Source: Takakia lepidozioides
Lineage: Eukaryota; Plantae; Bryophyta
Assembly (NCBI GenBank): GCA_030704615.1
Contig: CM060731.1
Coordinates: 70,494,001 to 70,558,000, forward strand
DNA length: 64,000 nucleotides
Reading direction: 5' to 3'
The position numbers were made by a program, and so were the translations under genes. Below, piece after piece: positions 5,658 through 64,000 of this stretch (the first letter of the stretch is position 1; the number at the start of each line of letters is the position of its first letter). The notes beneath the pieces are model-generated. The model searched no databases, was not told the origin of the DNA, and saw nothing but the letters and a program-made list of their open reading frames with translations.

Positions 5658-5986
5658 TGCAATGCTTACTTACTTGTTGTGCATTTTTCGGAAACAAAGT
5701 GATCCTCTTTTACGAAAAGACAAAACACAAGCAGATTGCAGGTGCTCTCTCAAACAGTTTCAGTTGCTAACTTACTCCCTCTCGAACTCAAGCTGCAGAG
5801 TGGGCAGTAGAGTGTGGGGTTATGTAGTCTGACAGATAAGTTAGAGCTCACATTTCGAAAAGTCAGTCAAACTCCGGTTCTGCGATACGCTGAGGTCATG
5901 TTTTGGACAAGAAGGGGCTCGTGCCCCAACAAATGTTGGATTGACTGGACACGATAAGATTCGAATTTCGTGCACTGCGTGTATAC

Positions 5987-17047: not shown

Positions 17048-18976
17048 TCAAAGTATCAAGCCTTGTGCTGGTGGAGGTTTTGCTGCAGGCTCATTGGCAG
17101 GTTGCACAGGAGAGTATTTGTCGTAGCCAAGAGACCCAGTAGGATACCTCCCACTTGTAGATGCAGCAGCTGAGCTCATTGAAACAGCTGCACGCTCTGC
17201 TGGATGTGTGGGAGGTGGTGTGTAGCTGTCTGTGAAGGCCGAGTGATACTCTTGCCCATCTGATCCCATAGCCTGTGCTCTCCTCTGCTCATCTGAACCA
17301 AATGCCTTCTCCTTCGCTTTCTGACTCACCTCACCAGCAGTTTTGGTGACCTTGGCAAATGCACCGGTCACCCATGTTGCACCTGTTAGCACATACCTAT
17401 TCTTCATAAGAGCAGAGCCTGCATTGTTGACCTTCTGCTCAGCCACAGCAAATGCAGATCGTGTCTTCTCAGAGACCTGGAATTTCTGATCAACGGCCTT
17501 CACATGTTGATTCACAACTGAAGTACCCGCACTCAGCTTCTGGCTGATGCCAATTTTCTTATCAAAAGATGAAACTCTTGCAGAGGCACCGGCTATCAAC
17601 TGATGCTTCTCATCAAATGCCTTGGCCTTGCTCATTGCATCCTTTCCCAACACAAAGCCTCTTGACAGCATGTTCGAAATGACATCCTGCGCACTGGCTC
17701 CAGTGACCCCAGAAATGGAACTACTGTTCCCAGCCTGCACAATTCTCATCCCATTAGCGCATTGCAGGGATAGAAGATAACAGAACTGACAGATCTGGAA
17801 GATTCAAGATGCACCTCACACCTGTGCCAGGACATAAAGTTCATTCCATCTCTTGAATACTCATTGCAAGTTTTTCTAATACAGTTTGAGGCAGGACTCT
17901 AGACAATACTTGATGTAATCAGATTGCCTAGGGAGTGTAAAATATGGATCATACCACAGGCACTGCATTGCTAGGCTCCTCTGTCACAAGGGTGGTTCCA
18001 TTTGCTGTCCCCTCCGACTCTTCTATGGGGGCAATGATGACTGCTTGATCCACAACAGTTGCTCCCTGCACATTTATTTGTCAATTAGACCACCCTCTTT
18101 CATGCTAGCCATCTACATGTTGCTGCAAGAAGTCTGCAGGCACACACAACAGCCAAATCTTGTTCTCTACCACTGGAGCAGTAGAAGTACAAGCACATGC
18201 AACTGCATAAAAGCTAGAAAGTTCACAGGCAATACCAACCTGTGCTTCTCAATATGGCCAAAAGGGGTAGAACAAATGCTGCAAATGATTTAGTCGGCAC
18301 CTAGCTTAACTGCAACCATGCACAGACAGGGTCGGCAGCTGCAAACTCACAGAAAGCAGGAGGGCGGTGTCCAGTGCCTGGGCCTCCTTGAATGTCACGT
18401 AAGCCACCTGAGAATGTTCCCCATCTCTGGAGAGGTAGTAACAAAGCACGTTAGGTCCGGTTACCGAACCCGAGAGGTCAAGAAAACTGGGCGCAGAATA
18501 TTTCGAAGAGCGTAAGGCGAGGATAAGCTTGTGGTAACAAGAGAAAAGCAGATCAACCTGTGCAGTTTGATATGGTCAATTTCCCCAGAAAAAGAGAAAA
18601 AATCTTGAATGTCATGCTCGGTAGCTTTCATTGACACATTGCTGACTCGAACAGTATCGATCTGGTGTAAACACGACATATCCAACCAACATCAGAAGAT
18701 CCATCTTCGAAAAGCAAGTCACTGGAAGGTATGAGTTACAGAAGCTAAAACAGCTCTTCGCAATCATCCTAATGATTGAGACAATGCACACATGCAACAC
18801 TATCTCCATCTCCACAAAACACATTCTCACTCACTCATTCTCGCTCACTCAAAACCATCTCGCCTCTTTCTCTGATGCCGAATCTGGTGACACGACACCG
18901 CCACAAGTCCCACTAATCAAACAAAACATGATCTACGGAAAAACTCAAGACTGAAAACCACCGTTCGTACCGACAT
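17048..18976 (-). CDS. BPA1: BPA1-like (binding partner of ACD11) RRM-containing protein, 5 coding exons
   Basis: Exons 18976-18971 (MS), 18661-18558 (IDTVRVSNVSMKATEHDIQDFFSFSGEI), 18426-18351 (VAYVTFKEAQALDTALLLS), 18065-17955 (GATVVDQAV), 17734-17048 (MLSRGFVLGKDAMSKAKAFDEKH...NRYVLTGATWVTGAF...PAQGLIL*), all GT-AG. Confidence 0.88.
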
Positions 18977-20669: not shown

Positions 20670-23600
20670 GAAGCGAAGCAATGTCGTTCGTCTACGAGGT
20701 CTTCCATTCAGTGCCTCTGAGTCGGATATTTCTGATTTCTTCAAAGGATTGGAGATGGGGCCTGACGGGGTGGTCATTTGTGTCAATTTTCAAGGTGAGG
20801 TGTTCTTCAAAATGTTTGCAAATCTAGGGAGGTTATGAACAATCTTTGGAAGTACCTGTGATGAACTTGAGTATGTATCCATCATATCCCCTGTTACTGT
20901 TAAGTGGTTGTTGGATGATATTACAGTACAGTTTGTTGTATTGTATTTGTTGCAGGGAGGTCAACATCTCACGCTCTGCTTTACCTTGGATGTGGCTATG
21001 TTTCAACCCTTGGCTATCTCTCAGACGTGATATAAGAGTGTACTAGGCTCTCACATTTGTGTGGTTGTTGCAGGGAGGTCAACTGGTCAAGCTTATGTAC
21101 AGTTTGCAACTGCAGAATTAGCAAACAAAGCTCTCGATCGAAATAGGTTTGTGTAAAACCCTCTCTAGTTCCCTTTCTGTAATTGTTTGCATGTAGTCCA
21201 TTGTGCTGATGGTTGAGTGGTTACTATATTCAAATTGTTTTCGACCTTGCGCTGTCATTTCCTGGAGTGCCATTTAAAATATGGAGAGGGGATTTATGGA
21301 TCACTAACTCAAATTTATGGTTCATTGGGGATTCAGGCAACACATTGGTAGCCGTTACATTGAAGTTTTTAAGGGGCATCCGGCAGATATGCAGGTATTC
21401 TTAAAATTCATGAGAGGGAAGACCACTTGTGGTGCATGTTGTATGAGAAATTTTTGTTGAGACTATTGTGGTGGAGTGATTGTGGATGTCACCTTACATT
21501 GGTGGCATTTATCTTATTTTTCCATGTCGCTGAGACCAATTTCTATGATAGGGAGCATTGCGAATGCTGGGCCGAGGAAGTGGAACAGTAAATGGGACTG
21601 GTGCTGCTTCTACTGGTGGCATCCTCAACACCGGAATCCCAGGCATGTCTGGCAATCCGGACATGCGTTATACTGGCGTTGTGCGCATGCGAGGCATGCC
21701 CTACAGGTTTGACTTCTAACTTGAGGCCTGTGACTCTGTTACGCATTTTTTGGATAGAACTGAGTGCATTGTATGCCACTCAGCTGACTCTGGGGAGTGG
21801 TTGGGTGGGAACAGCTGTACTTCTGCAGACATCACAGCGTTTTTTAAAGGAATGCAGGTGGTGGCTGATGGGATTTTCTTATGTACCCATGCCGATGGCC
21901 GTCCTACAGGCGAAGTGAGTTTTCATTGCCAGGTTTAGGAATGATCTTTGATTTTTTCAATTTGATTCAGTCCAAGCATGCAACAGATGACCCAGTGAGT
22001 AGGATACAAGGTCACCTTGCAAGTGGTGGTGGGTCCGAATTCACATGGGTGCATGTCGAGTGTCACCCACAATAGGTAAACCCACCTGCAAAACAGGGGT
22101 CACGTTGTGGGTAGCCGGGGACTTTGAAGCCTTGAATAGTAGATAGTAGTTATTTGTTTCCTTTCTTTCCAGTGAGTTCTGTTGCTAGCTAGGACTCTCT
22201 GTTGAAACTAAAGGCTTCAGAGCTGTTGGGACCCCCTTAAGCTTTTGAGCATTTTCAGTTGAGGTCAACTATTCCTCTGAGATAGTTGCATGTGAATGTG
22301 ACAGACAGACCTCAGGTGTTATTGAATGGACATTCTGTAGTGTGTGGCCTTCCAGTGGCGGTTGTCAGCTGACCACCTGGTTCTATGTCTAATCATGACA
22401 GGCTTTTGTGGAGTTTCTGAATGAGGAAACAGCTGCACGTGCAATGCAGCTACACAGAGAACCCATGGGCTCGGTTTGTTTGCGATAATCTGAAGTGTTG
22501 TGATGACCTTTCCCTTGATTATAAAATGTGTTAAGGAAGCTCGATAGTCATAGTTGTGGGTATCTGAAACTGTGATGTTTTAGAATCAGAAGAGGTTCCA
22601 AAGGTTTGTGTTGAACTCCTTACTCACATGAATGTGTGTGGTGTTGACAGCGCTATGTGGAGCTCTTCCGTAGCACAAAAGGGGAGATGATGACAGCAGT
22701 GCAGCAGCGGATGTACGGCATGTTTTCAGGTGTCGGTGGCTTCTCTCAGTTTGGTGCCGTAAGCCAGGTGAGTTGCATGGGCAAATGTGTGTGAAGATGA
22801 AATATGTTGGAGGTTGTCTGCAAGGAACTATAACCTGAGTGGAATGGGGTTAAAGGCTCTAAGTTTGCATGGCTGAAGCACTAGTGGGGTGATGGTGGGA
22901 ATGTGTGTGTGCGTGTGTGTTTCAGATCCCGGGAATGATGGGAGCCTTTGGAGTCCAGGGGTTGACTGGGATGAATGTAGCAGCCATGCAGGCAGCAGGG
23001 TTGGGTGGCTTGACTGGGCTGCAAGGCATAGCTGATACATCAGAACACGTTTGCATCAAGATGCGAGGGCTACCCTATAATGCTGGGCAGAGAGAAATAA
23101 TGGATTTTTTTGAGGGATATAACATTTTGCCCAATGGCATTCACATTGTAATGGGAGCCACAGATCGTCCGACTGGGGAGGCGTTCGTGGAATTCATCTC
23201 CTCAGAGGAGACCCAGAGGGGAATGGAGCGCCATCGCCAGAACATTGGTTCCCGCTATATAGAGCTATTCAGAGCAACCAAGAGGTAGGTCCTTCCCCTT
23301 TCTGTTTTATGAGGGTGCTGACCTTGTTCTAGCTTATGATCCTACCGTTGAGGTGGGTTTTTTGCATCACTAGAAAAAAGTATCTGGTAGGAAGGGATTC
23401 TGTCTGAGCAATTCAAAAACTGTTGCTGTTTTGACGTAGCAGTTTACACGTTACATGGGTGTCTTGAAAAGGTGGAGACCCTACCTACTGGTGATATCTT
23501 CCTTGCATTTGTGTCTGGGCCTTGGTGTTTGATGTGGAGAGCTACAGCTTTTAGCTATAATTATGATTGTGTGCCTCCATGCAAGACAGTTCGTACCTTT

Positions 23601-38424: not shown

Positions 38425-38799
38425 ATGGGTTCGGGTGTGTTGCCTCCCCCTGCACCTACGCATTTGGAGACTCAAGCTGCATCGATTGCCAAGTGGGCAC
38501 GCTCACTGGGCGCATCAACCGAGCGGATTGTCGAGTGCCTGAATGAGGACTACTTCTTGTGTTTGAAGAGACCTGCTCGTGTGCGTTGGCCTGGATTTCC
38601 ACAGCCCTCCAACTTTCGTTATTTGTTTAGGCGCCATTGTGCAGAGATTTTGGGTTGGGTAGATCGCAAGGAGGAAGGAGACCCTCTTGGGTTCAGCGCA
38701 GAGGTCAACGACATTTTGAGGCTCGAGGTTTGGCCTGACTTCCAGACGTCTTCTGCCAGCCACGATGAGGCTCAAACAACTGGCCAGGGAGAGAGGTAA
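38425..38799 (+). CDS. 124-aa upstream ORF inside the piggyBac element (separate accessory protein or first exon)
   Basis: Clean ATG-started ORF of globular composition, with a potential donor GAGAG|GTAAT at 38795/38796. Confidence 0.45.
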   Translation: MGSGVLPPPAPTHLETQAASIAKWARSLGASTERIVECLNEDYFLCLKRPARVRWPGFPQPSNFRYLFRRHCAEILGWVDRKEEGDPLGFSAEVNDILRLEVWPDFQTSSASHDEAQTTGQGER

Positions 38800-40876
38800 T
38801 CGTATTGAACCCTCTTTTGATTTCATGAGTGAGGAGATGGGCAATTCGACCTACTCCTTGCGCAACTCTCAAAATCCGCTATGTGATCCTGCTGGTCACT
38901 CCCAAACTATGGAGGACATAGGGATTTTGGGATCCACAGTGAAGGTGGCAGTGGCTGAGCTGCACCTTCAGGATGTGGCATCGTCTAGCAATGCCCACGA
39001 ATTTGGATATGGCACTGTGGTAGACAAGACATGGGACATCCTGAATGGTACAAAAAATTATACTGTCTCTTTTTTTGGTGTCCTTGGTGTTCATGTGGTA
39101 TCGTCACAGTCCTGTGTTGTGTGTAATCTTGATGATTCAATGTTGTGCACTATCCCTGAGCTCTTGGGGTTGGATTCTGAAGCTGAATTGCCTGAGGGGG
39201 AAATAGATGATAGTGAATCAGATTCTGATTGTGACTATAATCCAGAAGATGATGACATTGTTGACATCGACAATCCTGACTTGATGGACTACTGTGTTGA
39301 CACGGGGAATCCAACGCGTGAGGTGGGATTATATGATTTGCCGCCCAATTGGGAGCAATGGAGTCCTGCTGAGTTGTTTGGTGATGACATGTGGAACTCC
39401 TCTGCTACTGAATTGCCAGACATTACATGGTTAGGTGGGGATTCGGGTCCTCGTTTGCCTTTTGGAGATTCAGCAAATCCAGTTGATTTTTTCAATTTGT
39501 TTTGGCCACTATCGGTCATGCGCCGAATTTGCAGCATGACCAACTTGTATGCCAGGACAGAAAACCAGAATGGAAACCTGAAAGGAGGTAGATGGTGGTA
39601 CCCTATCACCATCCGTGAATTGAAGGCTTGGCTTGCTGTTCACATGCTCATGGGAATCAAAAAATTGCCTAGTACTAGATTGTATTAGAAAGCCAACAAT
39701 GTCTTCTTCAATTGCCCTTCCATCATGCGCATTATGTCCCGCAACCGATGGGAGGCAATTTTGAGGTGCCTCCACCTTGTTGACAATAAGGATGTATGCA
39801 CTATTGACACTGACCCTGCTTTTGATAAGTTAGCTAAAACCAGGTGGTTGTTACATGCACTAAATGGTTTGTATGCCACCTACATGAGCCCCGAGCAGAA
39901 TTTGACTGTGGATGAGCAAATGGTGAAGTACAAGGGCAAATATGCCCGAATCCAGCAATACCTGAGCAAGAAGCCTGTGCAGTGGGGTCTGAAGGTGTGG
40001 TGTTTGTGTGGTGCATGTTCCAAATATGTTCAGAAGTTAGAGGTTTACCTTGGGAAGGATGATGGGAATGATATGATCCATGGTAATGGATATGGCGTGG
40101 TGACAAGGTTACTAGAAGGATTTGAGGGTAAGGGCCATATTGTAACGATGGATAATTTTTTCAGTAGCCCCATCCTGTTCTATGATTTGGCAGCAAAACA
40201 GATCTATGCTACTGGCACGGTAAAAACCTCCCGAGTGGGTTTTCCTACGTGCCTTGATTTGGGGAAGAAGGGTGAGAGAGGTAGGCTGGAATATCGTGTT
40301 CACATAAGTGGCAAAGTAGCCGCTATTGCATGGATGAATGCCAAGTTGGTGACCATGATTTCCACTGTCATTTCCCCTGTCAGTCCTGATTGCTTCATAC
40401 AAAGATGGCACAAAGGGGCAAGACGTGATGTGCCTACCTCCCCTATTGTGGTTCATTACCAGCAGCATATGCGGGGAGTGGATGTTCAGGATCAGCTACG
40501 GGGTTACTACTCTGTTCAGACCAGGGACCATAAATGGTGGCACCGCTTGTACTTTCATGGAGTTGACACTTCTTTGGTGAATGCTTACATATTGTACCTG
40601 GGTTTTATGAGGGGAAAGGGCCACATTCCTCTTAACCACATTCTTTTCAATTTGGAGGTTGTAAAGGGACTAATTGTGGGGTGGGTTCCTCCCATGAGAA
40701 CAGTAATGCCAGGGGCAGATGTGCCCAACCCGGGGTCTGTGCATTTCTCCCTCAAGACTAGTAGGAGGAGGAAGTGTGTTCAGTGCAGTATGCGTCAAAG
40801 GTATTTTTGTCACGCGTGTGGAGATGTGTATATGTGCCTTGGAGGATGCTTTGTCAAGAGCCATAGCCTTCTCTGA
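38765..40876 (+). pseudogene. piggyBac transposase (DDE_Tnp_1_7/PGBD-like) with a single in-frame stop
   Basis: ORFs 38765-39688 and 39725-40876 are in the same frame, separated by TAG 39686-39688 where a conserved Trp is expected (LPSTRLY[W]). Catalytic VDEQM, MDNFF and GVDVQDQ; C-terminal Cys-rich CVQC...CHAC...CLGGCF..H. Confidence 0.9.
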
Positions 40877-45700: not shown

Positions 45701-47985
45701 TACTCGAGTGGCGGCGGTGCTGGAAGCAGTCTGATACCCGTCATTGCCTCTCAATCTGGAAACCCCAGCAGAGGAGCTAGGCAGACTGGACTCCTCCCTT
45801 ATCAACAAGCTTGCTCTGCTCTGGGGAACTACCATACTGTGCCCGGAGTGTGACATACTAGGCACTGGGTGCAAGCGCCGCTCGCTGGGACCAGGATCGG
45901 TGCTTGGGCTGCTGAAGTCAAGCAGGGTGGTTGCTTCAGACGACCCAGGATCAGTGGTGTCATAGCTCAAGCTCCTGGTGTCACTGCCCCTGGTGCTGTA
46001 CAGGCTACTACTTGTGGATGTACTTACATCAAAGTGCAGTCCTGCCCCAGCATCGTGGCTGCCATGGTCCCCTGTACCCTGCTCTCTGGGGTTTCCATTC
46101 CCTTGCAACACAGACCCTCCATTGGCACTCAGATTCCCGGCACCAAACAAACCTCTGAAATATCCATCAAAGTCCACACCATGCACATCATCATAGACTA
46201 TGTTTGACGAGTTTGAGCGTGAGGCAGTAGTGCCTGATGGGCCAGGATCATTAGGGGCAGCCCTGCCATCACGGGTGTGTCGGCGGCATCGGGCATTCGG
46301 ACTGGTCCATGGCTTGGGCCAGGCCTTGCTTGGCTGCATAAGGGAGGCCACTACCTCTCCCACTGAAAGTAAACCTCGGGCCTTGCGCACTGCCGCCTGC
46401 TCCTGGTGAAAGTTGGCCTCCTCCTGCAGCCCTATGTCACTCAGTATTGCCATACCTTCTGTATGCTCAAAACCACCACTCTCCAGGGGAACTTCACCAA
46501 GGGAAAAAGGAGAATGATATGGTGCTAACTGAAAACCTCAAGCAAGATGGTAGCCAGAATAGTCTTATACACGAATGGAACGCCAAACTATTATTATTTA
46601 TCACAGATGCAGGTTCAGTAATACTTTTATCAATCTTTACCCAACCACATTACAGAAGCAAGAACCTGAGACTGGGAATTGAGCAGAAGCTCATCATCTT
46701 CGCGTAAAAAGGTGCCAATGGTGCGCACATCCACGAAGAAGCCAGCCTCCCGGACCTGCAAAATGTGGATGCACTGGAATCGCACTGACAGGATGGCGAG
46801 CAAGTCGTCATGCAGGAAGACGCCTGCGTTGTGTGCCAGGTGGATGTAATCATTGTGGAAATCCCGCTGGTCTACCACTGTCCCATCAGCCAACCTCACC
46901 AACAGAAATGTTATCTTCTCAATGCTAGGCACCCCTGCCAATGCTCCACTTGCCTGTGGGGCAGAGCTGTCGGAAGTAGTAGATGTTGCAAAGATGCCAT
47001 ACTGGTTATTCTCTGTGGAAATAAAAAAATCTTTGCAAATGATCTCATTCCCAGTGGCAAGAGGGACAGAGTAGAGTTGACTGAAGAAGCTCTCAAATTT
47101 CTTGGATTTGGCAGGTAACTCATCAGTGGTGTCAGAATTGGAGCAGAAAGAGAGCCAGGAGAGCCGATAGACCAGAAGATCTATGAAGTTCCGACTGAAG
47201 CAGATGAGGTACTGCCCATCATTTGTAAACTTGCGCCAAGAATGGTCCGGGCATTCCACATCATAGACTGTGTGACTTGGTAATATGTTTTCATATAGCT
47301 CCCTTGCACGGTGTATCTGCAAAATGGCAATCCCTCCTCACTGTTTAGGTATCCAAAACAGCACCAAAATCATCCTATCACAGGTACAACAATCCTTTTG
47401 AGCACACAACGGCCTCCTCAGGCATTATTTCATGGGCATACAAGTCGGGAGTGCAGCCGATCTGCCTGCACTACAAGCATGGAAATCTCCGTTGTAAGAC
47501 AATTGCATAGGGAGCTGCAAGCGTTTCAGCATGCAGGTCGCTCGGCAAGATTACAATTTGCTTTTTAGTACTCTTGGCAGCCCAACTCCCCCACCATTTA
47601 CTTGGCCCAAAGTCCCTGAGACAAGACATTAGCATTTTTCAACAGCCACAAAACCGTTTCCCCAGCTGGACTTCGAGCACAGATCGAAACGGCGTCTTCG
47701 AACCTCGAGTGACATGGACATGTCTTTGCCATTGTTACAGAATCATTTTATACGAGGGAGCCGACCTTCATCATTTCTCAAGCTGTAAAAGGAGATACAC
47801 CCAAAGCAAGATGCTTTTCATTCGGCCTATCTCTCCAACTACAACCCTTTAACCTCCCCCTCCCTTTACCCCGAACCGTGCATAGGAACGAATAGGAGAT
47901 GTGCCAGTACATGAGTGTTCGGAGCAACGCGGATGATCTGACGGGAGAAAAGCCGGTGCACAATGTTATCACTCCGCTTCCACAT
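42768..47985 (-). CDS. DET1: DE-ETIOLATED 1 (DET1), light-signalling CUL4-DDB1 E3 component, 10 coding exons
   Basis: Exon 1 47985-47911 MWKRSDNIVHRLFSRQI; exon 2 47316-46666 (ENILPSHTVYDVECPDHSWRKFTNDG...IHLAHNAGVFL); exon 3 46423-45479; then FYYHFQQYVDLVMWK, VQFLDRHHLLIKFGSVDG, NSSEEL...SNN-like, SPSPYFDQYLFHYDEK, LISATDRHK...FKINPG; last exon ending FHPILPFAISIQQSFMQSTIVNFHFRR*. Confidence 0.92.
43101..43419. repeat. Near-identical 160-bp tandem duplication in the last DET1 intron
   Basis: 43101-43260 and 43261-43419 differ at only a handful of positions. Confidence 0.92.
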
Positions 47986-51037: not shown

Positions 51038-52806
51038 CTGGATATTGTCAATAAGATTGAATTGGTGGATATCGTTTTTGTCACTCTGTAGGTTTATTTG
51101 ACTTGTCACGCAAATGCTCCAGGGTTCATTGAGCATTGCTTAAATTATGATTACAGTTTTGCATATTTCATATTGGATAAGGTCCGCCTTTTTTATGTAA
51201 GGTGGTATGCGCTACAACTAGCATCGAATTGCATCTATTTGATGCATCTGGAGTTCTTGTATTGTCTGGACTTGTCACAAAACTTTAGCTCTCTAGCACT
51301 TATGAAATAACCCATCATAAGTGTCTCTAATCCCATACAAGATCCACTGACCACGGCTAAGACTGCTTTGTATAGGATTTTTGCTTATATGCTTGTTAAA
51401 GGACATAAAATGAGGGATGTGTGCTTTGCATCTATTAGATTAGATGTTTTGAAAACAGACAATCAATTTTTCTTCATGATTTCAACTCATCGTAGGACCA
51501 GTGCAACATCTTTTGCATTTGACATTTTGATTTGCACATAGTCTGGTCCTCCAACTTTCTGAACTGCTAGAGGCTCTCATAATTTGTGGATTCTTCTGCA
51601 CATCATGACGACAAAAAAAATTGGAGGTGTCAAGTTATTTTACCACTAGTGTGAAGTTAGCTAGGAAATAGCTAGCTTTTATATATTGATATTTGGGATT
51701 GACCCAAGTGTCAATCCAGGGGCCAATACATGTTTGGGCACATGACGTTGTTATCTTCACAGCAGGTCGCAGTGGGCTCATCTTTCTCGAGTTGAGCCTC
51801 ACCGCGTCTAGCTATGGCGCCGTAGTGTGGATTCCCATGGCGTGGGGTGCACTTGGCTCGACTTAATATATGAGTGATGTTTTCATGTGCGAGTGTGTGA
51901 GTTTGAGAGAGCTTGTATGCTTGTATCATTCCTTTTCTTATCACTCGAGATCAGCTCCAGGTATTTCTGCCCAAAACTAGTTGTTCCAGGTAGATGAGAA
52001 GCAGCCGAATGGTGGAGCTGCGAGGGGATGCATCGCAGCCCGTTGGAAGCTTCAGCTCCAAGCTCATGAAGAGGTATGAGTAAAGAGAGGGGGCTGGTCC
52101 CTCTTGTGTGCAAATCAGTACACTTATGAAGCATGTGTTGAGTTGGAGTTTCAATCTGAAACTCAGCAATGTAAGGGCTCTTGGAGTGGCAAGAGCGAGG
52201 CTAGAAGGGCAGCAACGAGGCGCCCTAGAGCCAAGGGAGATGCATGAGAAGTGCAAGTGTACCAAGTTTGTAAAGGTGTGTATTTTCAGATTTGTTTTTG
52301 TGAGCTTCATGAAGAAAAGGGAGCTTGTTGGGCAGCATATAGCTTGCTTGTTGAGTTGGAGGTACTTCTAGTGGGCCGTGAGAGCTCAGGAGTGCAGGGC
52401 GACGGGGCTGATGGCTCCGCAGAAGCCATAGCTCGTCGGCAGCAGGTGCTGGAGCAAACCCCAGCTCGGGGAGAGCTCGGGAACGCGTGGGAACGCCTCG
52501 GGAACGCATGGGAACTCGTTGGGAGTTCTAGGGAACGCAGGGAATAATAGCCGTGATGGACCGTTGGGGCGGTATCACGAGATACCACGAGCACATGTCG
52601 TGATGGTTGACCGTGACCGTTGGAAGTCGTGGTGCGGACACAACGGGTGGGCACGGTGACTAGATCGTGGGGATGTCAGGCCGTGAAGGCTCGTGGGAGT
52701 GGTAACACGGGGTATCACTGGGCAGCCCGTGGCCAACGAGTGCCTAGGGCGGGCCGTGAGGAGTAGTGGCGGTTAGAGCCACGGAAGGCCGCGAACAGGA
52801 AGAGTG

Positions 52807-52842
<36 letters not shown>

Positions 52843-53825
52843 TTTCACTCATTTCGTGGGACCTTGATGGGGAGGCTGGGCTCTGAAGAACAACGGTTTT
52901 GAGCTAGCTGATCCGGCAAAAAAGTCGGAATTGCCTCCCTGTTGCGTTTTAACAAAGGGGATTACTCCCCTACAGGTAATCTTTTCTGGTTTTCAGCCCA
53001 ATTCTTAACTATGGGGGAGACCAGCCTGCAGGTAATTCCTTTGGACAGAATGTTGTTGGGGCCTATATGTACCTCTATTTGCTCCATCTTTGAACCTTCA
53101 GTGAACGACATGGTTTCCTGAGGTGGTTCCATTCGGAGGAATGGCTGGTGGACGTAAGGAGGCACTAGCGGACCCTGTGGAGGCTTGCATGGGGCCTTGG
53201 AGGCCAAGTTTCATGAGCTCGTGGAGGGCGGTTTGAGGAGTGTCTACAGGATGCTCTCATGGTCATGCAAGTGAGAGAAGAGAGGAAAAAAGAGGGTGTT
53301 GGGATGAGAGCGTGCTGGGGATAGGCATTGCTTTAGTTTCCCTTCCTCATAGCTTTCCTCCTTCTCTGTAGGCCGAGACCTTTCCGTAGGTGGAGGCAAG
53401 AGTCAGTCCGGGTTTGGGCTGGGTTGTAGGAGTGACACTGTGGAGAGATTTTTGGTGTGGGGGAGTTGTTGTTTTTATTCTTGTGTTTGGATCCCCTCCA
53501 CACCTGCATGTTTGATTGTGCGTCATGCTAGTTTTGTGTGGGCACTTGATTTTATAGGTAGTTTAGGGTTTAGGGTAAAATCGATGCGATTTTTAGAGTA
53601 AAATCAGATGCAGATGCAATTCAAACAGATGCAATTCGATGCTAGTTGTAGCGCATACCACCTTACATAAAAAAAGCGGACCTTATCCAATATGAAATAT
53701 GCAAAACTGTAATCATAATTTAAGCAATGCTCAATGAGCCCTGGAGCATTTGCGTGACAAGTCAAATAAACCTATGGAGTGACAAAAACAATATCCACCA
53801 ATTCAATCTTATTGACAATATCCAG
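51038..53825. repeat. ~210-bp inverted repeat pair (51038-51250 / 53611-53825)
   Basis: CTGGATATTGTCAATAAGATTGAATTGG...GCATCGAATTGCATC is mirrored with few mismatches at 53611-53825. Confidence 0.9.
51700..53600 (+). mobile_element. Probable LTR/5' leader region of the gypsy element (boundaries unresolved)
   Basis: Non-coding GC-rich block directly upstream of the rearranged gag; GGGAACGC repeats at 52479-52545; A-tract hairpin at 52802-52850. No second LTR or convincing PBS was seen. Confidence 0.35.
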
Positions 53826-54718
53826 GCTTGTTGCACTTGCCAATCAGCAACCCGCTGCAAATCCTTGCTCGAGCCCCACAATGGAATGTGAGCAACCATG
53901 GCAGACAACTCCGCCATACCATACATGTCATCCTGCTCTCCCGGAGGTGACATATCCTCTGAATGAGCGTTGCCCTCAAGCAACTCTCCAGGCCAACTCA
54001 TTGCAGCTGTGAATGCTGCCAGTGTCGGCATCTTGCCTCGCTGGGCAACTGCAACTCCTCCTATGAACGTCACAGAGAGCTGCATACGCCGGCCCTCCCC
54101 TGACTGTCATCCAGGCCTATAGGAAGCTGACTCCTCCCAAAAATCCAGGGTGAAACCCATGGGGTACAACACTGCCCCACCAACAAGGACATCGTACGAG
54201 ACCCTGTCTGTCACAATGGCATTGGCTCTCATCACTGAGCTATCTGTAGGATGATCCGGCTGTAGTCTAATAGCCAACTCACGCCGTGTCATGCCTCGAG
54301 CCTACTCTGATCCTCCCAGAGGTTTCTGTATCTGGAAAGGGCACGGCTCCATATCCGCCTCCGTGAGGCCCAAGCCTGCAATAACAGCTCTGCCCAGCAT
54401 CAATGGCTGAGTTCCCGAGTCCAACAAGACCCGCAGTGGCCGGTTGCTTGCCGGTCCACTCAAATAGAAAATGTCATCTTGGTTGTCTAACATGACAACT
54501 CCAGGTGTCACCATGGCGTGCTCAATGGCTGGCCTAGCTGGCAGCTTCATCAACCTGGCAGCTACAGCTTGCCATGGCGCCGCCGTGGCAGTCTTGACCC
54601 TCACATCCGAGGATCCCTCCGGCACTACACCTCCCACTATCTCCGCAGAAGATGAAGTAACCTCCTCACTCTCACAGAGTGTAGCTGCTAGCCTGAACAC
54701 CTAAGCTGGTCTTACCTC
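53822..54718 (-). repeat. Inverted duplicate of the gypsy protease region (mirror of 57009-57905)
   Basis: Near-identical translations MFRLAATLCE...GGSE and MTRRELAIRL... on opposite strands; this copy retains LLDSGT, the other has LLDSRT. Confidence 0.95.
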
Positions 54719-56698
54719 CGGCGTCGCAATCATGGTAGCCAAGAACAATGGGGCCTGACACACAGATGTGGCTGCCCCCAGCAGCACACTGGCTGCCGTA
54801 GCCTTGGCAACACTAGGTAGTGGTGTTGCCCGTGTAGCTCTCCCCAATGGCATAGTAACCTCCGCCTCGGTAACAGTCGGGCGAGAACTAGGTGCCATGG
54901 ACGGCGTCGACACTGTCTCCGCCAATGTGAATGACTGAGGAAGCCTGGCCTGACGGCTTGCCTCCCCACGCTGTGGATCCAACTCCACCTCTGCACCCCG
55001 TGGCTCAGGAACTCGTGTTGCTCCTCGAGTCACTGCCGCAGCCGACTCCACTTGCACTAGTGGTAGTGGTGCCCCACCCAGAGTGGTAGTGGTAGTGGCA
55101 TCCCTCACTAGTGGTAGTGGCACCCCACCCATAGTGGTAGTGGTAGTGGCACCCCTCACTAGTGGTAGTGGTTCCCCACCCATAGTGGTAGTGGTAGTAG
55201 CACCCCTCACTAGTGGTAGTGCTGCCCCGCACATGAATCCCATGCCTTCCATGTCTCCTCCCTCAAGAGCAGGAGGTGGACCATCCAGCCTTGAAGTCGG
55301 TACCACCTGAGCTGTGGCCATGGCAGCGAGCCTCTGCTCTAGCTGCTGAAGCCGGTTGGCCATGCCTTGGTCACCACCTTGACTTCCGCGTCCTTGGCCA
55401 TGTTGAGCTTGCCCTTGGCCTGCACCTCGTGCCTGGCCACCTTGTCCTCTCTGGGCTGCTCCACCTCACCCCCGGCCACCATTGTTCCCTTGAAACTGGC
55501 CTGGGCGCAAACCATAGCACTGGGCTTCTCCATGCCCGTACTTGCCACAATGCCCACACTACAACTGTGCATGTTGTGCCGGTGCCAAACCATTGCCTCC
55601 TCTGGGCAATCCTTCTTGACATGGGGTCCTCCACATGTCCAGCACACCACATCCACCCGTTGTTGGCCAGCAAATGAAGGGAGAGACCCCTGCATCTAAG
55701 GTCCTCTCTGCCCTTCCCTGAGCTTCACCTGAGCTCCCTTGCTGCCTTGAGCACGTTGAGGTAGTGGCTGGTTAGGAGCACCACTACCTTGTGGCAAATC
55801 CCACCATGACCACTCGTTCCTCCACCATGTTGAGCTCTATCCGCTCTGCCAGCAAAAACACATTTGCTAAGGTGGGTTGGGCCGCTTGTAGGAGAGTTGC
55901 ATCCCGTACCCTTCTCCTCAGCTCCTTGTCCAATATCCCGTACCAGAATTGGACTGCCTGAGCCTCCGTAACCCCTTGGGTTACATTAATCAAGCGCTTC
56001 ATGCGAGTGAAAGCCTCCCTCAAGCTCTCAGTCGGCTTCCTCTAGAACTCTTGCAAGCTCCTCAACTTCTTTGTCCTTACCCCTTGGTAGTTCATTCTCA
56101 ACTCTTCGAAGAACTTCACAACAGGGTTGAAGGCAGACACCGCCACTAGTGCTGGTGCAGCAGTAGCTTGGGTGGACGTCGTAGCCTCTGTATCACTAGT
56201 CCCACTGCTGCTCGTGGAAGCTGCCGGTATGGCTGCTGCCCTTGTCCCTCTAGTGCCTCTAGTGATGGAGACATAGTCGGGTGACCAGTACATCTTCCAC
56301 TCCTCGATCTCAATATCATGCCCCCGCCTAAACTCATGGTAATCATCTATGGGCGGCCCCTCAAGGTGCTGAAACAGCCCCTTCCATGCCATGAAAGGCG
56401 TAAACAGTTGTGGATTGCGCATTTGCTGCAAGTCACACCAACTATCAAACTCTTGGATAAAATCATCCAACTCAATGGTGCCCACCGCCCCAGAGTACCT
56501 TCGTCGCCCCTTGGTGGCTCCATACATCTCCTCCATCGTGGCCCACAACAATGGCAAGGAAACAACTTGCACCGCCGGTGTGAGTCCTCCTGATTCCTTC
56601 CGTAGAAGACACAGGAGGTGAAGGTGGCCTAAACCGCACACCTCGTCTCGTATACCTGCTAGTATCACTAGTGCTCGTACCGGCACTTTCCCCAGCAA
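54701..56698 (-). pseudogene. Ty3/gypsy gag (capsid-like region plus CCHC zinc knuckle), inverted relative to pol
   Basis: YSGAVGTIELDDFIQEFDSW, FFEELRMNYQ...LQEF*RKPTESLREAFTRMKRL, CWTCGGPHVKKDC (55606-55644); in-frame stops; runs into the protease duplicate. Confidence 0.8.
55055..55225 (-). repeat. 51-bp in-frame tandem repeat in gag (LPLVRGATTTTTMGGxP x3)
   Basis: Three units of CACTAGTGGTAGTGG...CCCT. Confidence 0.9.
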
Positions 56699-57008
56699 CT
56701 AGTGGCACCTCCGTATTGACAAACTGACACTCAACCGGTCATGAACATGTCTCTAACCCCCTCTCCACAAAGTATCCGGGTAGAGAACCTGATGCGGCTT
56801 ATGGTTTGGAATACTAGGTTCCTAACATAGCCTGCACCTGTACCTGCATCCACCGCAGGCGCTCCTATGGTTGGCTGGTCATCACCTCCAACCTCACCAC
56901 AGGAGAAACAAAGATGGTCTGACTGGTCATCAACCCAGCCTCACCATCGACAACATGCTCTAGGGTTGGATCGGCGATCAAGCCCGAGTCAAATCTTTGA
57001 GTCAAATC

Positions 57009-60000
57009 GAGGTAAGACCAGCTTAGGTGTTCAGGCTAGCAGCTACACTCTGTGAGAGTGAGGAGGTTACTTCATCTTCTGCGGAGATAGTGGGAGGTGT
57101 AGTGCCGGAGGGATCCTTGGATGTGAAAGTCAAGACTGCCACGGTGGCGCCATGGCAAGCTGTAGCTGCCAGGTTGATGAAGCTGCCAGCTAGGCCAGCC
57201 ATTGAGCGCGCCATGGTGACACCTGGAGTTGTCATGTTAGACAACCAAGATGACATTTTCTATTTGAGTGGACCGGCAAGCAACCGGCCACTGCGGGTCT
57301 TGTTGGACTCGAGAACTCAGCCATTGATGCTGGGCAGAGCTGTTATTGCAGGCTTGGGCCTCACGGAGGCGGATATGGAGCCGTGCCCTTTCCAGATACA
57401 GAAACCTCTGGGAGGATCAGAGTAGGCTCGAGGCATGACACGGCGTGAGTTGGCTATCAGACTACAGCCGGATCATCCTACAGATAGCTCAGTGATGAGA
57501 GCCAAGGCCATTGTGACAGACAGGGTCTCGTACGATGTCCTTGTTGGTGGGGCAGTGTTGTACCCCATGGGCTTCACCCTGGATTTTTGGGAGGAGTCAG
57601 CTTCCTATAGGCCTGGATGGCAGTCAGGGGAGGGCCGGCATATGCAGCTCTCTGTGACGTTTATAGGAGGAGTTGCAGTTGCCCAGCGAGGCAAGATGCC
57701 GACACTGGCAGCATTCACAGCTGCAATGAGTTGGTCTGGAGAGTTGCTTGAGGGCAACGCTCATTCAGAGGATATGTCACCTCCGGGAGAGCAGGATGAC
57801 ATGTATGGTATGGCGGAGTTGTCTGCCATGGTTGCTCACATTCCATTGTGGGGCTCGAGCAAGGATTTGCAGCGGGTTGCTGATTGGCAAGTGCAACAAG
57901 CCTGGGTAGAGGCTTTTGTATCGTCAGGAGAGGAGGATAGTGCGGGGATTGCACCAGAACCACCTCAGTTGTCACCATTGGACACCACACCGATCATGTG
58001 GCAATGTCCGGATGAAGGCATTTGCCTTCTGGACTTGTTTGGCGGGATCAGCACCGGGTTGGCTGCTGTTCTATAGGTAGGTGTACAAGTACGACGTTAC
58101 CTGTATGTGGAGATGGATGAGACTGCACGACGCATTTCCTTACGCCATGTTGCTTAGTTGGTGCAGTAGTACCCTGAGTTGTTGCTGGTGTCTGCAGTTC
58201 GTGGATATCAACAGGCCTTGCGAGCAGACATTGCGTTGCTGGGGGCGCAGGATTTGGAGCGGGTTGGCTCCATTGATTTGGTAGTGGCAGGTTGGCCCTG
58301 CCAAGGGCATTCATCAGCCGGGCATGGCAATGGATTGCGAGACTCGAGGTTGGGTCTGTTTTGGGAGATGGTGCGAGTTTTGCGCCACTTACAGCTTCAT
58401 CAAGCTGTATCTCCAGCATACATCTTGGAGAATGTGCCACTGATGGGTGATTCTCGGGCCAGGGTGATGGCAAGTGTGCATCAAGTCCGGTCGTGGCTTG
58501 GGTCAGCAGTGTTGCTGGATGCAGCTGCAGTGGGGTCACGGGCTCATCGTCCACGGTTATGGTGGACTAACTTGATGTCACCCGCACTGCTTAAGCGTGC
58601 ATTTGATGGGGTGCAGCGGCCAGCACACCTCACAGTGGATAACATTTTGGACACAGGGAGGCAGACACGATGACCGTCCGCCTTTGGCAGTGGTCAACAA
58701 TGTGGGTCGACCACGAGCAGCACTACCTACACTTCTCAGCTTCCTTGGATCGCATGTTTTCCGGGATAGCGGACCTGGCCTCATGTGGGATGCTCAGTTG
58801 CAACAGTTAGTGGAGCCTAATGCCGACGAGCGAGAGTGGGCTATGGGTTTTTCCACTGGGACCACGGCGGTGCTTCTTTCTGAGGCATCACGTCGTCAGG
58901 TGTTGGGGCAAGCAATGGATCTAAATTGCTTGACCTGGATTATCAGCTTGGCTATGGCTGAGCAACGTAGAGTGTGGAGTGCACTTCCCTTGACGGTCTC
59001 TCTGTCTTCCGAGACTTTACAGGCAGTGAGTGGGGGCGAGCCGGTGAGGACCACGCGGTGTAGACATCCATGGCACACGTGGGAGGTGCTCGAGGTTCAG
59101 AGGAAGTTGGCAGCCAAGGCGGCTGTGATGGATGAGGTTGGGGATTCTTCTCGGGTTGAGGAGGTCCTCAAAGATGAGATGATGGGGCAGGATGAGGCCT
59201 TGTCATTGACAGAGCAGGCAGGGAGTACTGCTCATGAGGTTGCGGCATAGCAACCATGGGACGCGTCCTCTACCTCTAAGTCTGCAGGACTTAAGGTTGC
59301 AGTTACGGAGGACAATTGGGAGCCTGACATTGGACCCATTGTCACTGGAGGAGAGAGACGACGTATACGGCGGTTCCTGAGGGCTTACAGGAATTGCTTT
59401 GCCTTCAGTTTGAAGGATTTGGGAGCACTGAAGGGTCAGGAGATTCGTATTGAGTTGGCTACGGACACGCCAATCTTTCGGAGACCCTATAGATACAGTG
59501 ACATGGAGAGGTCTTTGATTCAGATGATGACTCAAGATCTCTGGGAGGATAGTTTTGGTGGAGTTCTCTGGTGGAGAGTATGCTTCAGCCACGGTGATGC
59601 CAGCCAAGAAGGATGTCTATGGCAATTGGACGGAGAGACGTATGTACGTTGATTACCGGATTATAAATCGTCAGACCAAGTCCGATAAGTATGCCATGCC
59701 CACACCGGAGGAGATCTTTGATGCCATTGGGCATGCCAAGGTCTTTAGCACTTTGGACTTGCGGTCCGGATATCACCACTTGCCGATCAAGGAGGCGGAC
59801 AAGCAGAAGACGGCATTCTGGGGGATCAATGAGCACGGGAAGGATTGCCTATATCAGTGGCGTTTCTTACCATTCGGGCTTAAGAACGCTCCTGCAGAGT
59901 TCCAGACAGTTATGGACAGGATTCTAGCAGGGGTAGACTTTGCTCGGTGCTACATAGATGACATCATCATCTTTAGTACTACAGTGGATGAGAACGAGAG

Positions 60001-60509
60001 ACACTTTCAGGTGGTATTTGAGCGCTTGAGAACGCACGGATTGAAGTTACATCCGGGGAAGTGCAAGTTCTTCCACAACCACATTGAGTATCTGGGCCAC
60101 ATGATATATCCTGGAGGATTGGGGGTGCAGCAGACTAAGGTAGAGGCCATCGCACAGATTCCACGTCCCACGAATGTAAGCCGAGTTCGAGCTTTCATGG
60201 GGTTGGCAAACTACTATAGACGGTTTATCAAGGGATTTAGTGCTATTGCAAAGGCTCTAACCAAGCTGACCAAGGTAGACCTGGAGTGGCAGTGGGAAGT
60301 TTAGCAAGAGCGAGTTTTTCCGGAGCTCAAGGCGAGGTTGACCTCGGCGCCGATCTTGAGACGACCTATCAGGGGGCGTCCCTTTCGGGTGCATACAGAT
60401 TGAAGCATGCTGGGACTTGGAGCGGTGCTCACACAAGTGGATGATGAGGGAAGAGAGTTCGTAGTGGGCTTATGTTAGCCGCTCGAACAACACTGCAGAG
60501 TCTAAGTAT
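57009..60509 (+). mobile_element. Ty3/gypsy pol: aspartic protease - C5 DNA methyltransferase - reverse transcriptase - partial RNase H (decayed)
   Basis: PR: RVLLDS(R/G)T...YDVLVGG. MTase 58017-58940. RT: PIFRRPYR, VDYRIIN, LDLRSGYH, LPFGLKNAP, YIDDIIIFS (59951), YLGH, FMGLANYYRRFI. RNase H: SAPILRRP...HTD*S..GLGAVLTQ...SRSNNTAESKY, then an abrupt cut at 60509. Confidence 0.92.
58017..58940 (+). pseudogene. C5-cytosine DNA methyltransferase domain embedded in the gypsy polyprotein
   Basis: Motif I LDLFGGISTG (58029-58058), II YVEMD, III DI, IV AGWPCQGHS (catalytic Cys 58299-58301), VI ILENV (ENV 58428-58436), VIII AHRPRLWWTNL, IX EREWAMGF, X LGQAM. Same reading frame as the protease; TAG stops at 58074, 58155 and 58167; one frameshift near 58665. 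Confidence 0.9.
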
Positions 60510-60860
60510 CACTACAACAGATTGCGGCTTTTATGACTCCCATGGGTGCGCAGTCATGACATATTTGTGGCAAAAATGACTGCACCGTTTGCAGTCGTAA
60601 AATGCTTTTGAAGTCATAATGCAGGTCTGGGGAAGACGTATATGCGACTACATGGCTCCGGACTCTGCGCAACACAGGTCAAACATGTTTGACCACGAAT
60701 ATTGGCATGGCAGATATGACTACCAATCACGGTCATGGCTACACTGGAATGACGTGTGCATATTGCTAGACAGACATATGACTTCATGACTCTCACTCTA
60801 ATGCATTCTGCCAGATCATCACATGGATGAATCGCTACATGACTGCACGTGTCGACACAT
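60510..60860 (+). mobile_element. CACTA (En/Spm) transposon left terminus truncating the gypsy RNase H
   Basis: CACTACAACAG begins exactly where the RNase H homology stops; it is followed by dense ATGAC/GTCAT subterminal repeats in both orientations. Confidence 0.75.
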
Positions 60861-62331: not shown

Positions 62332-63296
62332 ATACTGATTGGACACTGATGTGTTTGTGGACAGATGAAATATTCAAAGAACATGTGCAGCATGATTTGT
62401 TTTTGTATTCTAGTCTTTCTTGTCTTGAGGGTGAAGGGTTGCTTTAGGCCTTCCAGTCATATAGAGGCACATGACATTTGGTCCAGTTAGTTGGAAGGCA
62501 TAGTATCTGTAATGGGCATTTGTGGTGGCCAAAATGGTCCTTTGAGTGAGTGCAAGGTAGACAATACTGGTGCTGGGTAAATGGTTGGTACATTGTTTCG
62601 CAAATTGAACATGTATTCAATCAAAGTTAATTGGATGCCACTGTGAGACGTTGCCTTGTATGGAAATGGACGTCAGATTCTTTCTTTGGGGTGATAAAAC
62701 AGGTGGCGTAGCATGTTTGCATTGGCTGCAGTGTCCTCCTTTGTTTGGGCATGGCATACACTCCAGAAAGCCCACGTTGGCTATGCAAGGTTAACTTCCA
62801 TCCATATACGATGCATCTTGATTTTCTGTATCTTGTTGTTTTTGCAACAGGGTGACTATGCAGAGTTGGAATGTTGAACAACTTCAAATAGAGAATTGAG
62901 TCTAGAACAACAATTGTGTGTAATGTGGCTAGCACAACAAATGATTCAACGGAATGATGCTGGAGTGTGCAACAAGGGAGGATAGCAAAGGCAGAGACAC
63001 GGCAAGACAACTGTGGGGCAAGGCAAAGTTTGAGGTGGCCTTGGCAGACAAAGAACTACCCCAACCAGTACAGACCCAGCCAGTCTTATTCACCCAACTA
63101 TCGACTCTCTGAAGAAGAGTTCTACAACCAGCCTATCACAAATCCAAACTACCTGAAGCATATCGGATTATATTATATTAGATTTCCCGGCAGTAAGCAG
63201 TCCTTCCATATTGATCCGTCACCCTTTGATTTGCAGCAAACTTTTGTTGTGTAATTTCCAGAGATCCCTGGTGACATCATCAAATCTGCAATTGTA

Positions 63297-63452
63297 CCAG
63301 ATGTCATCCTGAACATTGGTCTGATGGCCATGTATGCTAAATGTGGGAGCATCTAGGATGCCAAGGGAGTGTTCAACACTATGGCTGAACCAGATGTGGT
63401 GTCGTGGAATGCGATGCTTGCAGGGTGTGCAGAGCAGGAGCGCGGGATGGGG
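63297..63452 (+). pseudogene. PLS-class pentatricopeptide repeat (PPR) gene fragment
   Basis: PDVILNIGLMAMYAKCGSI*DAKGVFNTMAEPDVVSWNAMLAGCAEQERG; stop at 63354. Confidence 0.85.
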
Positions 63453-64000
63453 CTTTGGACACCTGAAAGCAAATGATGGGGAAAGGGGTGAAGGTACCTT
63501 CTTCAACATAATTCACCATGTTTTCCCTGCTAGTGTGTGCTTTGACAATTCTAGGCTGTCATTGTTAGCTTCTAGCAGCAAGGCGAGGATGTATGCATGA
63601 TTTGTGCAGAGGCATCGATAGCTGAAGGAGAAGGGATTTCGTGTGGGTCCAGATTCATCCAAGAGGGCCAGATTTCAAGCACAAGATTACCTGTGATTCC
63701 CTGTGGATCAATAGCTACAAGAAACCTGCATGGGTAGATGGTCAACTGGCAGCAGCGGCAGTGATAAAATCAGGCACTGCTAATGAAGGCATCTTCTTCA
63801 ACACATTTCACCCTGTTTTTCCCTCTTATCAGAATCGGCCCTAAATTTTCATGTTCAATTCTGCAAGTTAGCTGGTTGAGTGAATCTAGTTTGGAGTGAC
63901 TTTGACATGATACTGCCAATGTGACAACAAGAAAGTGTCAAAAAATAGGTAATAGAGATGAGGAGAAGTTGTGGAATGAATACTTATCTGAGCCCAGTCA

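Follow-up and report, generated by a model that had tools for sequence, protein, structure and literature searches.

Why retrotransposons should keep cytosine methyltransferases of their own has been called unclear in the paper describing such elements, whose known hosts are algae (PMC5890265; statements on this and the other papers cited refer to the accessible portions of each source). The locus studied here raises the same question in a land plant. It lies at 57009..60509 of a stretch of 64,000 nucleotides (hereafter, the window) from contig CM060731.1 of the Takakia lepidozioides assembly, and the initial annotation described it as a long terminal repeat (LTR) retrotransposon carrying a cytosine-5 (C5) DNA methyltransferase inside Pol, between the aspartic protease (PR) and a Ty3/gypsy reverse transcriptase (RT). 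Our analyses confirmed a multicopy and selected methyltransferase domain, but assigned the element to the lineage already known from the alga Klebsormidium nitens rather than to a new capture. The enzyme does lie between PR and RT; however, a conserved in-frame stop codon follows it, so that it falls with Gag rather than with RT and is not simply a part of Pol.

Identification and conservation of the methyltransferase domain

The methyltransferase (DNMT) domain occupies 58014..58962 (+), is interrupted by three stops and one frameshift, and begins in the PR frame, as originally proposed. In a profile search of this copy, PF00145 scored 46.4 bits, well above its cut-off of 22 (E 4.8e-12). All of the motifs first recognized were recovered in order from translations with X in place of stops, namely DLFGGISTG (around 58033), VEMD, GWPCQGHS (58290), ENV and AHRPRLWWTNL, followed past the frameshift by EREWAMGF and LGQAM (58903). 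We take these to be C5 methyltransferase motifs I to X, in their canonical order.

The flanking domains are likewise recognizable in this decayed copy. The PR region (57009..57908, +) comprises the linker between Gag and protease and the aspartic protease itself (57201-57611); no Pfam match to a protease was obtained here by profile search, and the region is 51% identical to the Marchantia protease region (E 1e-42), while Asp_protease_2 reached E 2e-4, below the cut-off, in the unbroken relative L082. Downstream lie the RT (59314..60229, +; RVT_1 E 4e-32; 75.5% to the Marchantia protein P0017) and a cut-off RNase H (RH; 60230..60509, +; RT_RNaseH_2 E 3.7e-12).

With relatives as queries, the best solved-structure matches by sequence were DNMT3A, 3B and 3C (E 1e-11 to 7e-6), DNMT3A (E 1e-11) standing well ahead of HhaI (4e-4), DRM (9e-4 or worse) and DNMT2 (4e-4 or worse). 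An alignment-based model of the L082 domain had a predicted local distance difference test (pLDDT) score of 97, compared with 33 for a single-sequence model, and a Foldseek search with the L082 model placed DNMT3A first (E 7e-20), all 31 rows shown being DNMT3 entries. By score and predicted fold on the relatives L031 and L082, the domain is thus a member of the DNMT3 class with unpermuted motif order.

Across 67 aligned rows the catalytic Cys is invariant, the Glu of ENV is present in 66, both motif VIII arginines are present in 65-66, and motif I is conserved. The ratio dN/dS of the domain was 0.09-0.12 in the three pairs formed by the near-intact relatives L082, L086 and L087 (0.10-0.14 for PR) and 0.10 between the first half of the window copy and L035, with cross-lineage dS mostly saturated. 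The value of about 0.1 among near-intact relatives, a calculation proposed in the initial annotation, indicates that the DNMT domain is under purifying selection.

Distribution and inheritance of the family

A protein search with the central part of the DNMT domain recovered 84 relatives, those with names coming from Marchantia polymorpha, Calypogeia fissa, Sphagnum species, Riccia sorocarpa and Klebsormidium nitens; the order PR-DNMT-RT was also found in Marchantia, Calypogeia, Sphagnum and Klebsormidium. A metagenome scan confirmed 215 of 305 pattern matches, the best 80 of which form our locus set. RT starts downstream of DNMT in 66 of these 80, and most of the other 14 stop at a contig edge or an insertion. 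In addition, 31,561 contigs of a single run (X1) align along the stretch and cover DNMT and RT alike; although this summed depth is not a copy number, the family is very abundant in moss. No fern, lycophyte or seed plant appeared among the named matches, which is weak evidence, as most matches are unnamed and gene sets often lack transposons.

Distances in the DNMT and RT trees agree (Spearman 0.65, permutation p 0.001, 38 elements), and therefore the domain has been inherited with the element. In the RT comparison (rows L031, L035, P0012 and window 59579-60270), the Sphagnum-type copies group with Marchantia (99/97) and not with the window copy (approximately unbiased test, p 0.005, for a group named after the first tree). 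The identity in DNMT is 72.5%, compared with 62% for a segment of the host gene DET1. This grouping may reflect old paralogous lineages or horizontal transfer. The outgroups of the DNMT tree were prokaryote and phage sequences only; a scan of viral contigs gave 30 matches (28-48% identity), five of which were used solely as outgroups, and an Atlas look-up returned generic PF00145 clusters only.

Clustering at 50% gave 266 representatives with matches of E 1e-30 or better. Many of them belong to a large gypsy clade (P0226-P0251, P0255-P0393) with a PHD finger, in which DNMT is placed after RNase H and before integrase. A match from Cymbomonas tetramitiformis falls in this clade of the DNMT tree. 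The domain may have moved within the polyprotein or been captured twice, and no description of the clade was met in the literature searched. Two other arrangements were observed: two DNMT-bearing copies on opposite strands, nested or interleaved, at L094:6429-11539, and three zinc-knuckle proteins (P0076, P0080 and P0082; 1176-1278 aa) ending 12-13 residues past DNMT, which by sequence are possibly another type of Gag-DNMT first open reading frame (ORF1).

A conserved stop codon between DNMT and RT

The Gag-PR-DNMT frame is closed in the window copy by an in-frame TAG followed by CAA CCA (59248..59256, +), a predicted programmed readthrough site with the context CARYYA. Among 795 aligned contigs from four runs (787 of X1, then 1, 1 and 6; one run is from a second organism), no difference at a frequency of at least 3% was listed at 59246-59256, while positions 59244, 59245, 59257 and 59258 vary. 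A stop is present at the site in 53 of 54 alignments, whereas stops at 692 other codons average 0.95% and nowhere exceed 37%, several of the loci being the same insertion, and in 57 of the 59 Sphagnum-type loci at this site (39 TAG, 18 TAA and 2 TAC). The divergent lineages read TAG CAACCA (L080), TAG CAGTTA (L082 and L086), TAG CAATCA (L087) and TAG TAGCCA (L090); TAG-CARYYA is shared by the window copy and three divergent lineages, one of them decayed. The stop lies 112-128 codons past the DNMT domain in the divergent lineages, compared with 80 and 95 in others, and the flanking linkers differ in both length and sequence among the window copy, L080, L082, L086 and L087.

In L082, 1359 codons of Gag-PR-DNMT are followed by one stop and then by 1047 open codons of RT, RH, integrase and PHD finger. 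This TAG is the sole stop of the whole frame, and the first Met lies 117 codons further on. The reading frame is maintained across the stop, and the 110 codons between it and the RT core, which precede any Met in L082, show a dN/dS of 0.11-0.14. Moreover, 17 database proteins that start with Gag (1159-1775 aa, including five Marchantia models) end 76-171 residues past DNMT without RT. The protein P0224 was dropped as a Gag-PR-DNMT ORF1 because its cluster mate, P0411, continues into RT. A contig of run X12, which is only putatively RNA, crosses the stop unbroken and was left out of the evidence on expression or splicing. In L108, L109 and Klebsormidium the frame is continuous, without a stop, and the stop is therefore a feature of a subclade (30 rows, support 99 in the DNMT tree). 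Thus, the TAG at 59248 is a family feature and not a sign of decay.

About 10 nt past the stop, a stem-loop is predicted at 59261..59367 (+), with a z-score of -3.3 for a segment of 150 nt and the third rank among 26 windows; we treat it as a lead only. Structure at this place had z-scores of -2.6 to -3.3 in four of seven sequences and -0.7 to -1.0 in the other three, the ranks among control windows were 3/26, 6/32, 4/33, 7/25 and 8/24, and the same two regions pair in eight of ten sequences. The stem-loop is a possible helper of readthrough; a special structure is not established. The 120 nt before the stop (window 59130-59250 and the corresponding segments of L035, L087 and L090) also fold more stably than shuffled sequences, with z-scores of -2.4 to -3.8 in four of five elements.

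A model of expression and the alternatives to it

In tobacco mosaic virus (TMV) and further plant viruses, readthrough is directed by the context CARYYA after UAG, and the Gag requirement of retroelements is about 20 molecules for each Pol (PMC4132726, PMC2194720). We consider it moderately probable that the family uses a leaky stop in the arrangement Gag-PR-DNMT3, stop, RT-RH-integrase-PHD, with the methyltransferase made at Gag level, packaged, and methylating new complementary DNA (cDNA) before integration. Given the conserved stop after DNMT, the methyltransferase would be produced at the level of Gag, and RT and integrase by readthrough: most ribosomes would halt after the methyltransferase and few would read on. 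The abundant Gag-PR-DNMT would build the particle, the protease would free the DNMT domain, and the freed domain would methylate cDNA before integration, with the likely benefit that new copies would arrive marked like host DNA, or already damped. The parts of this model differ in strength: from the sequence context, readthrough is predicted with good confidence; packaging and protease release of the enzyme are probable; and cDNA as the main substrate has slightly better than an even chance. The conserved stop offers a mechanistic clue: the enzyme seems to have been placed by selection among the proteins made in excess, together with Gag and not with RT, as would be expected if the particle needed it in stoichiometric amounts.

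Several observations weigh against this model. Concerning the stop, the context in the Sphagnum-type family is CAACCC in 53 of 59 loci, one base off CARYYA, and TAA replaces TAG in 18 of them; no such stop site was found in the decayed loci L091, L094, L097 and L110, three of which were tested and fall inside the same clade; and the continuous frames of L108, L109 and Klebsormidium do without one. Early Met codons past the stop in four of the six copies examined make reinitiation possible there. Concerning the enzyme, the observed/expected CpG ratio is 0.58 in the element and 0.43 in window 1-50000, leaving no footprint of self-methylation; dN/dS is higher (0.34-0.46) among recent Sphagnum-type pairs; and no DNA methylation was obtained in yeast with the Klebsormidium domain, nor with human DNMT3B in the same test, a result that its authors considered inconclusive (PMC5890265). 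Concerning the sample, many loci are repeat assemblies of one insertion, so that counts are not independent, and all loci were found via DNMT, to which sister elements without DNMT are invisible.

An alternative hypothesis is that the stop is a true one, RT-RH-integrase being expressed by reinitiation at a nearby AUG, from an internal promoter or from a spliced RNA, in which case the enzyme would be synthesized in Gag amounts all the same. In the Sphagnum-type family the early Met is codon 3, and in L086, L090 and L087 it is codon 5, 5 and 14, respectively; the flanking context of Candida Tca2 gave no readthrough in yeast (PMC2194720), and the Marchantia and Sphagnum fallax gene models that join DNMT and RT skip the junction. 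However, these skips are mutually different, as expected of predictors avoiding a stop; in the window copy and in L082 the first Met comes only at codons 85 and 117, respectively, past the conserved FAF motif; CARYYA is maintained despite unlike linkers; and the frame is intact across the stop. We therefore regard a true stop as unlikely.

To a similarly low degree, the enzyme might act mainly on chromosomal DNA (the insertion site, other copies or the host genome), as a brake or a chromatin writer helped by the PHD finger of the integrase. Amounts of enzyme at Gag level would exceed the need of one cDNA, a PHD finger does end the integrase (E 2.6e-10 in L082, where the rve integrase is present), and self-limitation and effects on the host methylome were raised by de Mendoza et al. 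(PMC5890265). On the other hand, a profile search detected no PWWP, ADD, chromo or DUF3444 domain in L082 ORF1, and the stop parts the enzyme from the PHD finger save in readthrough products.

Somewhat less likely again is a non-catalytic role, in which the DNMT domain would bind and protect cDNA or RNA but leave it unmethylated. In favor of such a role are the inactivity of the Klebsormidium domain in yeast, the missing CpG footprint and the replacement of the motif IV Pro by Glu (GxECQ instead of GxPCQ at the catalytic motif), which is seen in 26 of the 67 relatives in alignment A3 at the column of L082 domain residue 95. This is countered by the near-invariance of the catalytic Cys, the ENV Glu and the motif VIII arginines together with the conserved motif I, and by related DNMT3 domains borne by DIRS elements that are active on CG (PMC5890265). 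Finally, a single stray insertion, or a contig that is chimeric or not from a plant, suspected from the rearranged locus and from the lack of any single aligned contig over the whole stretch, has a negligible probability and is refuted for the domain order, as relatives carry the same DNMT domain between PR and RT in dozens of loci and several named genomes, the X1 contigs cover both domains, and a moss-type host gene lies 10 kb away.

Beyond expression by a leaky stop, it is possible, with rather less than an even chance, that an old and in places very abundant moss and liverwort lineage, present in the model plant Marchantia too, moved its Gag/Pol recoding point behind a captured DNMT3. Every particle would then carry an active methyltransferase that writes 5-methylcytosine de novo on new copies, while the ends would be rebuilt via an internal palindromic junction of end to end and integrase would still be used. 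If true, land plants would harbor a transposon-owned methylation writer at capsid stoichiometry.

Element ends and insertion

The relatives have the Ty3/gypsy order Gag-PR-RT-RH-integrase, with a gypsy-type RH and a DDE integrase, the last of which is missing from the window copy. Their repeats are not those of the paired LTR element initially assumed: a canonical element has a complete repeat at each terminus and a tRNA primer site, whereas in the five loci for which both ends are available repeat A is followed by the coding region, a purine tract and then B-A-B, with TG…CA ends, and by eye no TGG-type tRNA primer site was seen past repeat A in any of the five. All five are flanked by 4-bp target duplications, one with a mismatch and one starting TA, two of the five being the same insertion. 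At the inner B-A junction stands the near-palindrome CACGACA-GC-TGTCA, which recurs with minor changes in 12 of 80 loci from three distant lineages. Split repeats or junctions were located in L057, L078, L079, L089 and L096 and at L082:8653, L087:8232 and L108:9028. They are known from the relatives and absent from the window copy itself, and the family terminal junction motif had no matches on either strand of the window. By analogy with split-repeat recombinase elements, the B-A junction may template or define the cDNA ends. No match to a tyrosine recombinase was found in the two L082 frames, and the element is thus not of the DIRS/Ngaro type. The split repeats may also hide the family from LTR finders.

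Comparison with known systems

The closest known system is KnitGypsy-Dnmt3 of Klebsormidium nitens (de Mendoza et al. 2018, PMC5890265), which shares the intronless DNMT3-type domain in a gypsy polyprotein, the identical order PR-DNMT-RT-RH-integrase (KFL_009030040), purifying selection, and a DIRS-like repeat layout with gypsy domains that was noted by its authors (Fig. 4c legend) and is seen in the moss-family relatives too. The two may form a single clade, grouping together in an unrooted RT tree (13 rows, 99/99) and, with support of 82, in a quick DNMT tree. They differ in the host, the paper speaking of the K. nitens lineage whereas land plants are concerned here, in the far greater number of copies in the moss family, in the DNMT-RT frame, which is continuous in the alga and split in the moss family by the conserved stop, and in sequence, with only 44-45% identity in DNMT and RT.

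In-frame stops that set the ratio of upstream to downstream protein are otherwise represented by the UAG of TMV, which has the CARYYA context found here, and by the stops of SIRE1, Tca2 and murine leukemia virus (PMC4132726, PMC2194720). Here, in contrast, readthrough is a prediction and the stop follows an enzyme, so that PR and DNMT fall on the abundant side and RT and integrase on the rare side. Retroelement-borne cytosine methyltransferases for which cDNA methylation was proposed include SymbioDIRS-Dnmt3 and EpiLTRs (PMC5890265; bioRxiv 10.64898/2026.05.21.726589). The former has domains active on CG and uses a tyrosine recombinase, unlike the moss family, and the DNMTs of the latter form the sister group of DNMT4 and are accompanied by DAM and chromodomains, also unlike the moss family. 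The host plant genes PpDNMT3a/b (Yaari et al. 2019, PMC6453930) share the unpermuted DNMT3-type catalytic domain in non-flowering plants, but carry the DUF3444 that was not detected in the element.

The label "streptophytes (Gypsy-DNMT3)" is already in use, with no land plants named in the passages concerned (bioRxiv 10.64898/2026.05.21.726589), and PMC12344493 also speaks of "streptophytes", a term that could include land plants in the trees of both papers. No land-plant description of the family or of its stop was found in the literature searched, a scope with most subscription papers, figures and bioRxiv supplements outside it: "Marchantia" does not occur in the searched parts and supplement files of PMC5890265, "methyltransferase" has no occurrence in the main text of PMC6317226, and no such element appears in the accessible portions of PMC6317226, PMC11982613, PMC9477723, PMC9289625, PMC11244446, PMC6453930, PMC9985172 and 10.1101/363937. 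Thus, the capture itself is known from an alga, while the presence and abundance in mosses and liverworts and the stop on the Gag side were not found in print. Unnamed Marchantia models such as Mp_4g09160 and Mp_8g17980 are ORF1s of these transposons and can inflate counts of plant DNA methyltransferases. As the family is present in Marchantia gene models and CG-methylation mutants of Marchantia exist (bioRxiv 10.1101/363937), the function of the enzyme is testable in a land plant.

Structure and decay of the window copy

The initial annotation gave the order PR-DNMT-RT-RH correctly and rightly judged the copy inactive, but missed an inverted gag and an inverted duplicate of the PR region. Five in-frame stops (57024, 57423, 58074, 58155 and 58167) all precede the frameshift in DNMT near 58620-58673; a second frameshift lies near 59550 in RT, and further stops occur in RH. 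Upstream, a leader (56699..57008, -), placed by its position upstream of the gag match, is inverted relative to pol. It is followed by a stop-broken gag region (54719..56698, -), matched by Marchantia P0015 Gag in a tblastn search (64.5% over 247 aa, E 2e-103), the zinc knuckle of which is weak in this copy (zf-CCHC E 0.053, below the cut-off). Continuous with the inverted gag is the PR-region duplicate (53819..54718, -; 900 nt, 98% complementary, 14 differences), the active-site motif of which is DSG, compared with DSR in the forward PR region. The same codon is a stop in both PR copies and is absent as a stop from nearly all the aligned depth of other copies; therefore, the duplication postdates inactivation or is an assembly error.

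At the other end, a CACTACAACA motif (60510..60519, +) starts directly past the element end at 60509, and is presumably the end of a CACTA-type DNA transposon that truncated the element. Aligned contigs carry on with other sequence past 60509, and none covers the whole stretch end to end. A similarity search with proteins of the relatives found no integrase in the 64-kb window. The locus at 57009..60509 is thus a dead, rearranged copy, with gag inverted, PR duplicated and integrase missing, and the local inversion of gag and PR may be an assembly error. The PR-region duplicate ends at an arm of a neighboring inverted-repeat element (window 51038-53825), which has 205-nt inverted arms (97% identical), the right one adjoining the duplicate, and around which no target duplication was seen by eye. 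This element may have caused the rearrangement.

Host lineage and neighboring features

A host DET1 exon (46630..47337, -; PF09737 E 4.9e-38), used only for placing the host lineage, lies 10 kb from the element. Its best named matches are Sphagnum, Ceratodon and Marchantia proteins (69-71%), and in a tree of 30 rows, 29 of them hand-picked from the 120 hits listed to span lineages, the exon has as its sister group Sphagnum together with Ceratodon and Physcomitrium, with support of 91/99, just under the starred support level. The grouping with mosses speaks against the non-plant contamination that had been considered, and the host is therefore a land plant, most likely an early-branching moss.

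A piggyBac-like transposase (window 38720-40876, +; PF13843 E 2.5e-59 and 2.4e-9) occupies one frame that is interrupted only by a TAG at 39686, which lacks the CARYYA context. Host exons were observed at 4941-5669 (-), 17048-17803 (-) and 22893-23288 (+), one encoding a Rieske oxygenase (PF00355) and two resembling RNA-binding protein genes by eye. A fragment with a stop at 63270-63470 (+) resembles what we take to be a PLS-class pentatricopeptide repeat (PPR).

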